Source of the DNA: a virus
Virus record (IMG/VR): IMGVR_UViG_3300030107_001603
Span: 3,637-67,636 of that record
DNA length: 64,000 nucleotides
Strand: one strand, 5' to 3'
Positions within the stretch are counted from its first letter, which is position 1, and each line of letters opens with the position of its first letter. The position numbers and the translations under genes are program-made. Positions 19,701 to 28,700 of the stretch are shown piece after piece. Under the pieces are notes generated by a model. It was not told where the DNA came from. It made no database searches and saw only the letters and a list, made by a program, of their open reading frames with translations.

Positions 19701-22700
19701 TTATCTGAAAGAGTTACATTTGGGCAAATCAAAGGCGTTAATCGAATGTTAAAAGCAAACCCAGGTGCTAGAGAAGGCTTTACAAAGTACCTACGAGATG
19801 TGGTGTTTACTAAGGATTATGCTAAGTTTGTCGGTAAGGGTGTTTTAGATTTAGGGGAAGAAGGTCTTTCAGAAGTTTTAGCTACAATGTCTGAGAATAC
19901 TATTGATATTATGAACGGTGAGGATGTTGGTATCTTTGATAATATTGCGGAGTCTTTTATTAGTGGAGCTTTAATATCTCAAACTATTAAAATGCCTGTT
20001 ATATTCAACCAAATGTACGCTCCTTTTGCTAGTCCTGATAACAAAAGCATTATAAACGCAGCGGATATGAGAATTAGAGAGTTAACTAATCTTATATCGG
20101 TAGGTAGACCTAGTAAGGATGCTACTAGAGAAGAGATTGAAAAATGGGAGGTACAAGAAGCTAAGTATATAGAGGAAATAATAAAACTTGGACGAGACAA
20201 AATGGAAGCTATTTCTTACGACGTCAAGAGAGTAAACGCGATGGACTCGCCTCAAGGTAATAAAGATAAGAGAGAGTTATTAGATATACATAAAGATCAA
20301 AGAAAAATAGAGAAAGAATACAACGAGGTTAAAAACGATAAGAATTTAAACGAAGGTATTCGTTCGGTAAGACTAAAAGAATTACAAAACCAATACGGCG
20401 CTAATAACACTAGAAAAAGTAACATACTAGGTAAATACACTCCAGATATAGTAGACAGACGTTACGAAAAAGACGTAGAGTCAGCTAGACAGAGAGCAGA
20501 GGAATTAAAAGAATTAGATGGTACCCAGGTAGATATACAAGAAGGAAATGACCGTAGCTTTTTAGATTGGTTAATGAGTAACGACGGTTATGAAGTTCTT
20601 AGAGATGATGCCGGGGAAATGGTTGGGGTTAAGTTAGATAAGAAAACTATAAAAGGTTTAAAGAAACAAAATCAAGAGATTTTAAATAACGAGAAATCTT
20701 CAGAACAAGATAGATACCAGGCTGAGCAAAACATAAAAATGCTAGATGATGTTAGTAGAGCTACTGAGGGTAGGCAAGACTTAGGGTTTTTAAGTATGGA
20801 TAGGTTTAAACAGTTGACAGGGCAATCAATGAATTATGGTGCTCAATTAACTGAGTTCGATAACGACGGTAACATGAAGGGTCAAAAGATATTTATAAAC
20901 AAAGCTAGATCTCTTGATGCTGGGAAATTCTATACAGCTACACACGAGTTGCTACACGGGATATTATTCCAAACATTAAAGAGAGATCCAGATACTCAAG
21001 AGGCTCTTGGTAACGCCGTGTTAACAGCTTTAAATAATAAAGGTGTTGTTATACCTCCGAAGTTACAAGCGCGTATAGATCAATATTCAAAACAAGAAGG
21101 TAAAGGAGAAGAGATAATGACATTGTTGTCTGAGGCTATAAGAGAAGGTGATGTAAAACTACCTGGTCAATCTCTTAGGGTTCTTAAAAATTTCTTTAGA
21201 GGATTGTTCCAAAGAGACACGAACAGAGATATATCTTTTGATACAGACGAAGACGTGATAAACTTCCTTGGAAATTATTCCTACTCAATGAAGTACAACA
21301 AAGAAAACAAAGCTATCACTAGAATGTGGTCAGAAGGAGCTGGAGGTAAATTAATAGAAGACGCTAAAGCTAAGTATAACGCTAAAGTAAAGAAGAATAA
21401 ACCTACTGTTGGTGAGGCAAACTTCTCTAAAAACGTAGATCAAGAATTAAATAACAATCCAGATCTTTTAACTGAAATAGATGCGTTTGTTAAAAATGAA
21501 GATGGAACACCTAAATACACAGATAAAAGTGTTTGGCAAACGTCTACAGATTTTGTCGATGCTTGGCAGTTAATTACGCAGAGTAAGAAGTTAGATGGTT
21601 TGATTCAAGCTGGTATGGTAGCAGAAGGTGTTAACACACCTGAAGCGTTAAGAGATTTCACTAGAAAAGTTAAAGACGAATTAGGAGAAAGATTATTAAA
21701 GAATTTTGATCCAGCTAAGAATGATAGTTTATTCGGTTGGTTAACTGGTGTTTCTGGTGGTATGGGCAAGTCAATCATATACAGAGCTAAGGGTGATGTG
21801 ATGAACAAGTACTCTAAAGAAATAAAAGCTGTATCTATAGATAGAGGAATGACAACGGAAGGAGGAGATACTTTCTCATCTCAAATAGAGGGAGAGGTTG
21901 ATACTGAAATGGAGAGACTAGAAACTGAAGATCTTACTATTGGTGAAAAGACAGTTAAGAAATCTGATATAGATGTTATATTTTTAGAAAGCGTTAATAC
22001 TGATAAAAGAATTGTAGAAGCTATTAATGGTGTTATAGACAGCGCAGGAGTTAATTTAGAGGGACTAACTTATAATGGCACTAAAAAGAATATAATACAA
22101 CATGATGGTGGCAAGCCTAAATCTCAGCGTAAACCGGTGGGTAAATTATACAAAGTATTAGATTTAGTTTCTAAGGAGTTTGGTGTGGACCCAATGAGAA
22201 TTATAAAAGAACAAGACCTAACTAACGCGCAGAGAGTAGAGGCTAGAGAATACATCGAAAATAACGCTGAGAAGTTAATTGACATGTTACCAGAGGGTGA
22301 GAATAGAAGCGGTGATGCTACGGGTGTTGCTAATACTGTTCTTGGAGAATTTTATATTGAGGGCGATAGAATATCTATGGCAGAGAGTGGTACTGGGAAA
22401 GGTAAGAAATCTCAGACTAAAAGAACTGATATAACTAAAAAAGAATTTATAGAGTTCTTTAACAAACCAGGCACGAAATCAGATGGAGCTATAAGAGCTT
22501 TAATAGTTCAAGCGGCTACAATATCTGCTAATCAAGCTATAAGGTTAAATGCTATAAATAGGTCGACAGATCCTATGAGTACTATAGCTTTAGTTGGTGA
22601 TGGTAAATCTGCTATCATGTTTTCCAAGGATGATAAGAAACTTCAACCGCTGGGAGCTATAGATAGAACTTTAAGTAAATACCCAGAAGCTAAAAGTGAT

Positions 22701-25700: not shown

Positions 25701-28700
25701 AAAGTAGTAGATACTCATTTTGGTCCAAAATCTAATCCCTGGTGTATTATTGCTAGAAAAAGTAAAGATAAGTTGTTAGGTAGAGAAGACGTTATGGATG
25801 ACGCTTGGCGTAACTGGATGACTTATAGAGACGGACCTAAAAGAATTATATTCCAAGATGGTAAGTTGATTGCTTTCTATGCAAACGATCAGTATTGGGA
25901 TAGAATGGATAACCCTACAGACGCTCCGGTTGTTACAAAGAAAGAAGGTAATGTAACTGAAAAAATAGAACTTGTACCTACAGGGCAACTTGGTCAAGTC
26001 CAAGAGTTTGTTATAGAAAGACGAACTGTTAGTCAAGATAAAAATACTGTTACAACGGAAATTTTAGCTGAAGGAATGGATGGTTTTGAAGCCGGTACTA
26101 AGATTATTGAAAATAGAGTTAAAGGTATAACAATTAAAGAAACATATTACAATCCTAAAGGGCAGAAAGTAAGCGAATATAATTTTGATAAAAAAGGTGA
26201 TGGAGTTAATAGCAAAACTTTTACTCCACAAGGTAATATATCATCAGTTAATAAGTACGGTAATCCTTTTGGTGAAATGTCTAAGGATCAGATAATTAAA
26301 ACCAAAGGTGATATAATAGAGAGTCATGGCACCGCTTACAACGTTCGTGAAGCTTACCACGCGGAAGTTTTGTTTAAAGGTGAAGTAGCAGAAGTTGGAA
26401 TGGAAATAGGAAAAGATGTTAAAATAGATGATCTTCTTAAAACATCCCCTAATGGTGAAATAAGATTAGACCTTAATAAAGTTGTTGAAGCTGATCCAGG
26501 CGCTAGATTTATGATACCAGGCCAGACAGCAACTACGTTAGCTGAGACGCTTGGTAAAAAGACAGATGTACAATTCTCTAAAAAAGCAAGTGATCCATTT
26601 AATCTTGGAGAAATAATAAATTCTAATATTCAAAAAGAATTAGATTTAAATAGAGTATTAGAGCAAACTAAAGGAGTTAAAGCTGAAGCTAGATATTCTG
26701 ATGCTCAAGCTAAAGTACAAGGAAGTAGAAAGAATCCATGGTGGCAATGGTGGGTTCCGCCATCTGCTGAGGACTTTAAAGGATTGATATATAGATTTAT
26801 TGGTAAAGGAAGAATTGGAGAACAGCAAATGGCATTCTTTAAGAAATCTCTATTTGATCCATTTTCTAGAGCTTACGAAGCTATGAACAACTCTAAACAG
26901 AGATTAGAGGGAGAATATAGACAATTGTTAAAAGAATTTCCTGATGTAAAATCTGCGCTAAATGATATTGTTATAAGTAACTTTACATTAGGCCAAATGA
27001 TTAGAGTTTACAATTGGAATAAAGCTGGATTTGAAATACCTGGGTTATCACAAAGAGATTTAAACGCTATCATAAAATCAGTAGAAGCAAACGCGGAAAC
27101 ACTAGCATTCGCTAATTCGTTAGGTATGATATCCAATCAAGAAGCTGGATATACAGAGCCAGGAGATTATTGGATGGTAGAGAATATACAAAGTGATATA
27201 AATAAAATAAACAACGAGTTAGACAGGGCTTATCATTTACAAGAATGGAAGCAGAATATAACTAAGATGTTTGGAGAGTGGAAGGGTGGTAAATTAGACG
27301 GTCCTAACATGAACAAGATCGAAGCTGTATATGGTACTCAATTTAGAGAAGCTTTAGAAGATATCATATGGAGAATGGAGTTTGGTTCTAAAAGACAACA
27401 AGGTGGTAATCGATTGGTTAATAGATTTAATAATTGGGCAAATCAATCAGTTGGTGCTATCATGTTCTTCAATATGAGATCGGCGTTATTACAAACTATA
27501 TCTAGTATTAACTATATAAATTGGACTGATAACAACCCATTAAAAGCTGGATTAGCTTTAGCTAACGTACCTCAATTTGTAAAAGACTTCACAATGATAT
27601 TCAACTCTGACATGTTAAAGCAGAGACGTGCTGGAAATCAGAGAGGTATTAACGAAGCTGAGTTAGCGGAAGCTGTAGCAGGAAATAAGTTCTCTCCAAA
27701 AGCTATAATAAACTGGTTGTTAACTAAAGGATTTTTACCAACGCAAATTGCGGATAGTTTTGCTATCGCTTCTGGTGGTGCAACTTTTTATAGAAATAGA
27801 GTTAACTCATTGTTAAAACAGGGTATGACTCAAGAACAGGCAGAATCAAAAGCTTGGGAAGATTTTCAGGAGAACACAGAGGAATCACAACAGTCTTCTA
27901 GACCTGATATGATATCGCAACAACAGGCTAGTCCATTAGGTAGATATATACTAGCTTTTAAAAATACACCAATGCAGTATGCTAGGTTAACGAAGAAAGC
28001 TTGGTTAGATCTTATTAACGGTAGAGGAGATGCAAAAACTAACGTGAGTAAAATCATATATTACATGGGTGTTCAGAACTTAATATTCTCCGGATTGCAA
28101 GCTGCTTTAGGATCTTTGATTGGAGATGACGATGAGGAGAAAGATGCTAAGACACACGAAAGAGTAGTCAACTCAATGATCGACAGTGTTTTGGGTGGGT
28201 TAGGATTCGGTGGTAACGCTGTCCTAACTATGAAAAATATGATCATGGAGTATAATAAGCAAAATAAAAAAGGATGGAACGCAGATCACACTTATACTAT
28301 ATTAAAGTTCTTTAGTTTTTCACCAACAATCGGTTCTAAAGGTAGAAAGTTGTATTCATCTATACAGACCGAACAGTACAACAAAGATGTTATAAAAGAA
28401 ATGAGCATGTTAGATATTGATAATCCGAGATGGTCATCTATAGCTAATCTAATATCTGCTATTTTCAACGTACCTTTAGACAGGATAGTTAAAAAGGTAG
28501 ATAATATTGACGCTGCTATTACAGAAGATATAACCGCTATGCAAAGATTTGCTTTGTTAATGGGATGGAATACTTGGGATTTAGGTATTGACGATTCTGA
28601 TATCTTAGCGGTTGAAGATGAGATCAAGGAGAAAAAGGAAATAAAAAGAGAAGAAAAAAAGAAGAAAGAGAAAGAGGAAAAGAAGAAACAAAAGGAAATA

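Follow-up and report, generated by a model that had tools for sequence, protein, structure and literature searches.

The window analysed here covers 64,000 bases of a phage genome that is one contig of 67,636 bases (IMGVR_UViG_3300030107_001603), and it contains a giant open reading frame (ORF) whose product of 4058 amino acids (aa) carries the tripeptide Phe-Ser-Lys (FSK) six times, at aa 1556, 1955, 2409, 2795, 2838 and 3273, and nowhere else (Table 1). The residues that precede the six copies (N, M, N, Q, M and Q) begin at nucleotides 21420, 22617, 23979, 25137, 25266 and 26571, as given in a preliminary description of the sequence. The HELLH signature of a zincin metallopeptidase was likewise correctly placed there, at aa 1396-1400 (nucleotides 20943-20957), with the sequence GEEIM about 50 aa downstream. 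The preliminary description proposed that FSK is either a cleavage signal or a junction between cassettes, and that the virion delivers a swappable toolkit of effectors released inside the host. The junction is now well supported by conserved joints, alignment breakpoints and module swaps among relatives; cleavage by the zincin is a plausible further step.

Table 1. Positions in the window of the giant ORF and of its domains, modules and junction sites
Feature	Position	Strand	Remarks
Giant ORF (P0001), 4058 aa	16758..28934	+	Last large gene of the virion module
N-terminal region, FSK-free, aa 1-1339	16758..20774	+	Putative 'chassis' role
Zincin-like domain, about aa 1340-1555	20775..21422	+	HELLH 20943-20957; Glu1452 21111-21113
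FSK site 1, aa 1556-1558	21423..21431	+	Conservation F.6, S.5, K.5; variable flanks
Module 2, aa 1559-1954	21432..22619	+	First domain (aa 1566-1694) like sigma-factor region 2
FSK site 2, aa 1955-1957	22620..22628	+	M.7, F.8, S.9, K.6, then gaps
Module 3, aa 1958-2408	22629..23981	+	Alpha/beta, pLDDT 70-96; replaced in relatives
FSK site 3, aa 2409-2411	23982..23990	+	Kept mainly as S-K-A
Module 4, polynucleotide kinase/phosphatase-like	23991..25139	+	P-loop kinase nested in HAD phosphatase
FSK site 4, aa 2795-2797	25140..25148	+	Weak: F.6, S.3, K.2 (alignment A3)
40-aa spacer between two FSKs	25149..25268	+	Predicted disordered, pLDDT 29-43
FSK site 5, aa 2838-2840	25269..25277	+	F.7, S.9, K.8; start of module 5
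Module 5, aa 2841-3272	25278..26573	+	Helical and beta-rich, invariant NPWC; missing from P0005-type relatives
FSK site 6, aa 3273-3275	26574..26582	+	F.6, S.7, K.6; gap-rich flanks
C-terminal module, aa 3276-3960	26583..28637	+	Family hallmark
Lys/Glu-rich stretch and two Cys-rich DUF5763 repeats, stop codon	28638..28934	+	Pfam 32.3 bits, 2 stretches

Within this one protein the number of copies says little. The amino acid composition predicts 0.97 FSK, in line with the chance expectation of about one that had been estimated, against the six found (Poisson P = 5e-4). FSK is only the fourth most over-represented of the 2580 tripeptides present, with TPK, FVD and RCK above it; as there are 8000 possible tripeptides and about four such cases are expected, the count in a single protein is weak evidence. 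Outside the giant, the other 32 ORFs of at least 150 aa (11,292 aa) contain one FSK where 2.0 are expected. The case for the motif rests on the relatives of the protein.

A word-indexed search with aa 1300-3400 returned 538 giant proteins of 2231-7102 aa, almost all of them from marine metagenomes. A HMMER scan with the C-terminal module matched 2458 cluster representatives (50% identity) at E values of 1e-3 or below, 1550 of which reached 1e-30 or below, and 94 IMG/VR and 79 metagenome loci were fetched. FSK was found 365 times in 121 of the giants, with 114 expected, and 265 times in 124 further representatives (at least 2000 aa long and at most 50% identical to one another), with 93.2 expected (2.84-fold). 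In these 124 representatives the five permuted tripeptides reached 0.62-1.53-fold, and the near variants FSR, FSE and YSK 2.25-, 2.54- and 1.8-fold, respectively. The motif also has a defined place in the chain. Indeed, in the 233 relatives that have both landmarks, 457 copies lie between the zincin and the C-terminal module (109 expected, 4.2-fold) and 47 lie upstream of the zincin (54.7 expected). The preliminary description had remarked on protein ends without the motif, and for the part upstream of the zincin this generalises to the family; the C-terminal end is taken up below.

The motif is kept at the aligned junctions of homologues. Its context logo in the relatives reads [I/V]-[Q/M/K/N]-F-S-K, and in the residues aligned to the six query sites [F/Y]-S-[K/R] is retained between flanks that are gappy and variable. 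When conservation is scored per column, the motif stands as an island at four sites (1556, 1955, 2838 and 3273), and Ser is its most constant residue, at 90% or more at sites 1955, 2838 and 3273. At the joint before the C-terminal module, FSK is present in 123 of 224 unique contexts and [FY]S[KR] in 147; the remainder are mostly M-[K/Y/E/Q]-S-K, FSE or ASK, regardless of which module lies upstream. In clades that are poor in FSK, the words DSMYSK, DTMQSK and DAMKSK occupy the same joints. Read across the family, the junction motif is [I/V/M]-x-[F/Y]-S-[K/R], and in this phage it is always FSK.

The spacing of the motif is that of protein domains: the median of 678 inter-FSK distances in 404 proteins is 413 aa, with 145 distances in the 400-500 aa bin (49 expected) and 38 in the 50-150 aa bin (174 expected). 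It is also at the motif that alignments break. When 119 relatives are aligned to the query, coverage changes in steps at the FSK sites, and among 268 high-scoring segment pairs (HSPs) the ends fall within 15 aa of sites 1955 (33), 2795 (33) and 2838 (10) and the starts within 15 aa of sites 2409 (41) and 3273 (32), with only 4 ends or starts at site 1556. In an all-against-all BLAST of 120 giants, 6268 of 50,453 internal HSP ends were found no more than 10 aa from an FSK, whereas placing the sites at random gives 937 ± 159 (maximum 1519); of ten control tripeptides, all but FSN (2.4 times) reached 0.2-1.6 times their own random mean. In four relatives (P0005, P0006, P0021 and P0105) one FSK corresponds in the alignment to two sites of the query, 2795 and 3273, which means that the spacer and module 5 are absent from FSK to FSK, and in two others (P0007 and P0011) module 3 is replaced by an unrelated module of about 400-460 aa between two FSKs. 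The idea of a swappable toolkit has therefore held up: insertion, deletion and replacement affect whole modules, with FSKs as the borders, and the motif is conserved at the joints in hundreds of relatives.

Selection on these joints acts on the peptide and not on the DNA, since the Ser codons vary. They are TCT, TCC, AGT, AGT, TCT and TCT at the six sites, and in the fetched loci the Ser of FSK is encoded by AGT (.37), TCT (.36), AGC (.14) and TCA (.11), so that both the AGY and the TCN family are used at near-background frequency; a DNA-level signal, be it a recombination or a slippery site, is thereby ruled out. All modules are contained in one ORF in 169 of the 173 loci. Natural splitting of the gene at FSK was considered and rejected, because only 4 of the 173 loci have the modules spread over two or more ORFs and all of these resemble frameshifts inside domains. 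Shorter C-module proteins were also considered as stand-alone genes and were taken instead to be fragments: among 120 listed of 1538 such proteins (432-1376 aa), most start at Met residues that are internal to upstream modules or to the C-terminal module itself, and they come mostly from short contigs. The comparisons show the motif to be a junction signal selected at the protein level, with cassettes that are swapped from motif to motif.

Predicted structures agree in part with the earlier claim that the motifs lie at domain edges. Two AlphaFold2 models were made from 42-row alignments and together span all six sites: model A covers aa 1385-2420, with a mean predicted local distance difference test score (pLDDT) of 76.8, and model B covers aa 2400-3300, with a mean of 72.3. 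Sites 1955, 2795 and 3273 are inside segments with pLDDT under 50, the first of them within segment 570-582 of model A. Sites 1556, 2409 and 2838 are only near such linkers, at most 7 residues away, by a criterion that is post hoc and is satisfied by about 17% of model residues. Site 1556 is in a helix of pLDDT 52-71 that follows, after 7 residues, the break at 159-165 of model A; site 2409 is at the end of the terminal helix of model A (pLDDT 49) and in a helix of model B (pLDDT 60-67). In model B, the low segment 394-433 (aa 2793-2832) starts at FSK 2795 and ends 6 residues before FSK 2838, and the low segment 868-901 (aa 3267-3300) holds FSK 3273. Domain edges are clear for the kinase/HAD module, which FSK 2409 and 2795 enclose, and for the sigma-like domain that follows FSK 1556.

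The best-matched of the modules is the fourth, whose earlier label of kinase/HAD is confirmed as that of a polynucleotide kinase/phosphatase by Pfam (AAA_33, 5.8e-10), by Foldseek (T4 Pnk and Pnkp1, about 1e-7) and by VIA-align (4gp6, Z 15.2; 1ltq, Z 13.5; 4xrp, Z 12.5; the T4 phosphatase 5uj0_B, Z 12.1). The Pnk-like fold occupies residues 25-394 of model B, that is aa 2424-2793, so that the flanking FSKs bracket it by 13 and 2 residues, and its HAD motif DxDxT takes the form DFDDT, in which D33, D35 and T37 are invariant. Module 4 shares both folds, the P-loop and DxDxT with T4 Pnk and bacterial Pnkp (1ltq, 2ia5, 5uj0, 4xrp and 4gp6). Its kinase, unlike theirs, does not precede the HAD domain but is nested within it, and the module forms part of a putative polyprotein. 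The HAD domain of P0005, P0006, P0021 and P0105 has no kinase insert, so the kinase is itself a sub-cassette, and one that lacks FSK borders. The sigma-like label of module 2 is moderately supported. VIA-align relates aa 1566-1694 to sigma factors, including T4 gp55, in about 25 of the top 35 rows, which suggests a region 2-like fold at Z scores of 5-6.9, below the level that the tool calls safe for helical domains; no Pfam family, Sigma70_r2 and Sigma70_r4 included, was matched by aa 1557-1955 at E values up to 5.

For module 5, the description of an 'NPWCI' module stands in so far as this is a real folded unit (pLDDT 70-90, aa 2840-3265), and the name 'PcfJ-like' is dropped, as no family of that name was among the matches; the VIA-wide listing for model B is filled by kinases and covers no matches to module 5. 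No Pfam family was found for module 3, module 5 or the C-terminal module. The last of these is located at or near the protein end in most of 150 listed proteins (mostly 2000-3800 aa, short fragments included), and a stretch I-F-S-x-E-N-L-N-K-I-E is conserved within it, at about aa 3500 of the query's relatives. The DUF5763 repeats beyond it (C-x6-C ... C-x2-H-like) resemble small zinc ribbons and occur in only part of the family. Sequence-profile searches of the PDB with A3, A4 and A5 gave nothing meaningful. Foldseek with model A found generic helical repeats only in the PDB, with E values of at least 0.03, and a single match, a family member, in BFVD.

The zincin-like domain is the other constant element. 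Across 58 sequences that share 15-33% identity, H1396, E1397, H1400 and E1452 do not vary. In model A, HELLH lies in helix 7-22 and Glu1452, the invariant Glu 52 residues downstream, in helix 65-78. The combination H-E-H with a downstream Glu is the signature of gluzincins, in which Glu1452 would serve as the third zinc ligand. HExxH is present in 117 of 119 relatives, exactly once in 113 of them, and in 122 of the 124 new representatives, exactly once in 121; in 95 IMG/VR loci it is missing only from five giant ORFs that are cut at the 5' end. A hidden Markov model of the domain matches 193 of 279 proteins, and the other complete proteins have a divergent HExxH in the same strand-then-helix context. 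Against Pfam, the query zincin gives only DUF3267 (E 0.26, over 23 residues), and of the 58 members three match Peptidase_M78 (best 0.0042) and one matches Peptidase_M1 (0.018). No other protease family was detected in the 30 further ORFs scanned, and the 3.6 kb beyond the window hold a TerL-like and a portal ORF. A head-maturation protease was rejected as the cutting enzyme, as no such family was found in the 30 ORFs and other virion proteins have no excess of the motif.

The relationship between the zincin and the wording of the motif was followed with FastTree on 180 of 268 proteins, of which 163 have the F-type motif and 17 the M-type (M-x-S-K); the other 88 had a mixed or poor motif and were excluded. 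The zincin tree shows 6 changes of dialect and the C-module tree 10, compared with at least 15 for shuffled labels, which is a weak hint that protease and dialect are coupled. Single linkage by BLAST places 228 of 258 zincins in one cluster, with no clean clades. A complex prediction that paired A5 residues 1-216 (the zincin) with A3 residues 380-460 (the linker in which FSK 2795 and 2838 lie) scored 0.00 and counts neither way.

The surroundings of the gene indicate what kind of phage this is. PHROG families labelled 'virion structural protein', from Cellulophaga-type phages, are matched by ORFs upstream of the giant, and a putative capsid-module protein (1877-3334) has counterparts of 38-44% identity in 85 phage records (Flavobacterium 'elemo', Cellulophaga and Maribacter podoviruses). 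In Pfam, the ORF at 7979-11926 matches crAss_MUZ (43.8 bits) and MUZ_C (30.8 bits), that at 6139-7974 matches crAss_MUZ slightly below the cut-off (25.3 bits), and that at 4317-4994 gives a weak match to CrAss_Ring_3_4. The virion module (window 4317-11926) is thus of crassvirus type, and its muzzle protein is seemingly split or duplicated, in adjoining ORFs of 611 and 1315 aa. To judge from these genes, the phage is a marine crass-like podovirus of 67.6 kb, and the giant-protein family belongs to crass-like podoviruses of marine Bacteroidota; the closest cultured relatives of the phage are the Flavobacterium 'elemo', Cellulophaga and Maribacter Panino podoviruses. Cargo proteins and RNA-polymerase-associated giants, packed in capsid and tail and ejected, are the products of the crAss001 genes that follow the muzzle (PMC10172136). 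The giant ORF is downstream of the muzzle genes in the virion module, in the position of the crassvirus cargo genes, and it is therefore by position that the 4058-aa protein is inferred to be a virion cargo that is ejected, synteny being the sole basis. No homology to crAss cargo (gp45-gp50; phi14:2 gp65-67) was detected by tblastn of aa 1315-3347 and aa 3273-4058 against 50,697 phage records, in which the matches were kinase genes of unrelated phages or nothing, and a search of PHROGs with the giant protein gave no match. Three matches in the protein to the RNA-polymerase motif (DFDxD or DxDxD) were chance-like, none of them convincing, and a hydropathy scan revealed no transmembrane-like segment.

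Several neighbouring genes deserve mention. A 251-aa ORF (window 44784-45539, minus strand) scores 24.2 bits with Sigma70_r4 and 21.1 bits with Sigma70_r2. The phage may thus own two sigma-like proteins, one free and one inside the presumed cargo polyprotein, and the repeated early-promoter motif noted in the preliminary description could be the target of one of them. Directly 3' of the giant gene is an 866-aa protein with an N-terminal MAM domain (29825-32425, plus strand; 3.9e-18), and further along is a GroEL-type chaperonin (57008-58576, plus strand; Cpn60_TCP1, 1.6e-50); in Maribacter phage Panino, GroES adjoins TerL. The syntenic last gene of the Panino virion module (L001, 31774-37263) encodes an 1829-aa protein annotated as 'tRNA methyltransferase' that has three FSK; it has no HExxH and no detectable similarity to the giant of the window.

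The explanation that we prefer, and to which we give roughly an even chance, is that the protein is a polyprotein cut at the motif by its own zincin. The motif-free N-terminal part with the zincin, the exchangeable cassettes and then the conserved C-terminal module would together constitute a virion cargo polyprotein, whose cassettes in this phage are a sigma-2-like module, an alpha/beta module, a T4-Pnk-like kinase/phosphatase and the NPWC module. The chain would be packed as cargo through its constant parts and ejected ahead of the DNA, and the zincin would cut it at the motif, either after ejection into the host or inside the capsid. Cutting would set free the sigma-like factor, a T4 Pnk-like enzyme for the repair of RNA ends and the other modules, while the N-terminal part would remain attached to the zincin. 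The pieces to be expected are approximately aa 1-1555, 1556-1954, 1955-2408, 2409-2794, a 43-aa spacer, 2838-3272 and 3273-4058. Cleavage by the zincin is plausible because a single HExxH with an invariant Glu is near-universal in the family, because the sites are at linkers and because the 67.6-kb genome has no other recognisable protease. Many zincins prefer a bulky hydrophobic residue at P1', a preference that would place the cut before Phe; the M-x-S-K dialect does not settle the position.

A number of observations weigh against this explanation. The sequences compared are related, and the counts are not independent events. Within the C-terminal module of the 233 relatives FSK is 1.9-fold in excess, owing to the conserved IFSxEN inside that domain, and some copies of FSK are therefore not joints. 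Neither motif dialect is present in the stretch from the zincin to the C-terminal module in 21 of 268 relatives, and conservation at site 2795 is weak. Sites 1556 and 2409 fall in helices of low to moderate confidence and not in clear coils. A 49-residue acidic low-confidence loop (aa 1690-1738, 21825-21971), which separates the sigma-2-like domain from the rest of module 2, carries no motif. The zincin matches no peptidase by curated model, by PDB profile search or in the listed fold matches; model A begins at aa 1385, 11 residues before HELLH, so that the N-terminal half of the zincin is outside it, and the zincin fold is an unconfirmed prediction from the signature. We know of no repeated junction motif in the virion RNA polymerase (vRNAP) of phage N4. 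N4 vRNAP is ejected from the virion and, like the protein of the window, is a giant that contains an HExxH signature (PMC13434306), but it is reported to be delivered full-length (PMC5512222), so a zincin does not imply self-processing.

That precedent also speaks for an alternative in which the motif is a linker signal that is never cut and that serves for docking or register in packing, for threading through portal and tail, or for Ser modification, with the modules acting while linked. Conservation of the motif in flexible linkers, the single-chain form in nearly all loci and the view that crassvirus cargo is extruded partly unfolded (PMC10172136) would all suit such a role. We nevertheless consider it unlikely, as it leaves unexplained both a protease signature with invariant catalytic residues in nearly every member and the absence of the motif upstream of the zincin, and as the places of action of a sigma-like factor and of an enzyme that repairs RNA ends should differ. 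If the motif is cut, the enzyme could be another one, from the host or an unrecognised phage protease, and the zincin would then act on host proteins or on peptidoglycan peptides at entry. Published alternatives for such zincins do include effector or cell-wall roles, and here the zincin and the motif are linked by co-occurrence only; however, the scan of 30 ORFs and the genes outside the window offer no further protease family, the other phage ORFs show no excess of the motif as the substrates of a head-maturation protease would, and the dialect tracks the zincin tree slightly (if weakly) better than the C-module tree. This makes a second protease distinctly improbable.

It could be argued instead that the motif has no function and is a relic of shared linker ancestry, or a recombination scar carried along with module ends. 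Each module does seem to bring its own motif, some joints have tandem motifs 8-50 aa apart (60 of 678 spacings are under 50 aa), and the six copies in this protein are not significant by count alone. Such a relic would not be expected to persist whilst the linkers around it vary in sequence and length at identities down to 20-30%, nor to be replaced in other clades by a different word kept at the same joints, and the use of both Ser codon families at background frequency gives no sign of recombination at the DNA level; we regard a functionless motif as very improbable. Cleavage between F and S without any protease, by an N-O acyl shift of the HFS type, is barely credible. It would account for Ser being the best-conserved residue. 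In Nup98 and PIDD, however, such HFS sites require a strained turn in a dedicated fold and a preceding His, and here F is preceded by Q, M, K, A or N, the folds upstream all differ and three of the sites lie in low-confidence linkers.

Proteins of this general kind have been described. Phage polyvalent proteins were defined together with a proposal that their MPTase domains carry out autoprocessing before packaging, in the head or after injection (Iyer et al. 2017, PMC5512222). The giant of the window resembles them in combining unrelated domains in one chain, in having a zincin-like HExxH, the commonest domain of that class, and in being encoded among late virion genes. The polyvalent-type mix met here consists of the HExxH domain, the sigma-2-like domain, the Pnk-like kinase with HAD, and DUF5763; no LPD domain of Pfam was found at E values up to 5, and clusters of LPD39 and LPD38 from the ESM Atlas, distant leads at 0.95 and 0.93, were not confirmed by Pfam. 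The difference is that this family has a defined junction peptide at which cassettes are exchanged, and the accessible part of the paper names no motif. A preprint on phi24B describes a virion protein of 2811 aa that contains a metallopeptidase as well as LPD domains and is proposed to be ejected. Amongst crAss-like phages, gp65 of phi14:2 has a zincin-like domain, and some members fuse virion proteins into a polyprotein that is 'likely cleaved' (10.1101/2020.03.07.982082). The present protein is like the crAss-like cargo (crAss001 gp45-gp50; phi14:2 gp65-gp67) in its large size and in its place downstream of the ring and muzzle genes; it differs in having a sigma-2-like domain in place of the DFDxD motif, and the accessible text of the crAss papers gives no cleavage sites. 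In the literature found, from which subscription journals and supplements were outside the search, no junction or cleavage motif is named for phage proteins of this kind.

The closest parallel in design comes from toxins. The MARTX toxins contain an internal cysteine protease domain that is activated by inositol hexakisphosphate and releases effectors in the eukaryotic target cell. In Vibrio, these toxins have a central, strain-variable array of effectors between conserved N- and C-terminal regions (PMC6315884, PMC4453568, PMC2900308), an arrangement that the giant protein shares. They are secreted bacterial toxins, whereas the zincin here belongs to a presumed virion protein of a phage and the target would be bacterial; the two are not homologous, and the comparison is one of analogy only. 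We suggest tentatively, and with rather less than even confidence, that phages employ a MARTX-like principle, whereby a protein's own zincin would read a lineage-specific junction code ([I/V/M]-x-F-S-K, or M-x-S-K in the sister clade) and would cut the ejected chain in the host into effectors, the code permitting cassettes to be exchanged between phages with processing kept.

What is new here is an F-S-K junction motif with cassette exchange in a marine crass-like lineage, for which cutting by the zincin is plausible. It has been proposed since 2017 that the zincins of phage 'polyvalent' proteins cut these giants into effectors, and the present family, 2458 clusters at 50% identity and almost all from marine metagenomes, offers candidate sites, fragment sizes and catalytic residues. 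A protease and site pair able to release arbitrary cassettes from one chain would, if true, also be a useful tool. T4 Pnk helps to mend tRNA that has been cut by the anticodon nuclease of the host. The cargo of these phages would tell of their needs in the first minutes of infection, among which RNA-end repair could undo host tRNA cleavage and a sigma-like factor would be a further item.

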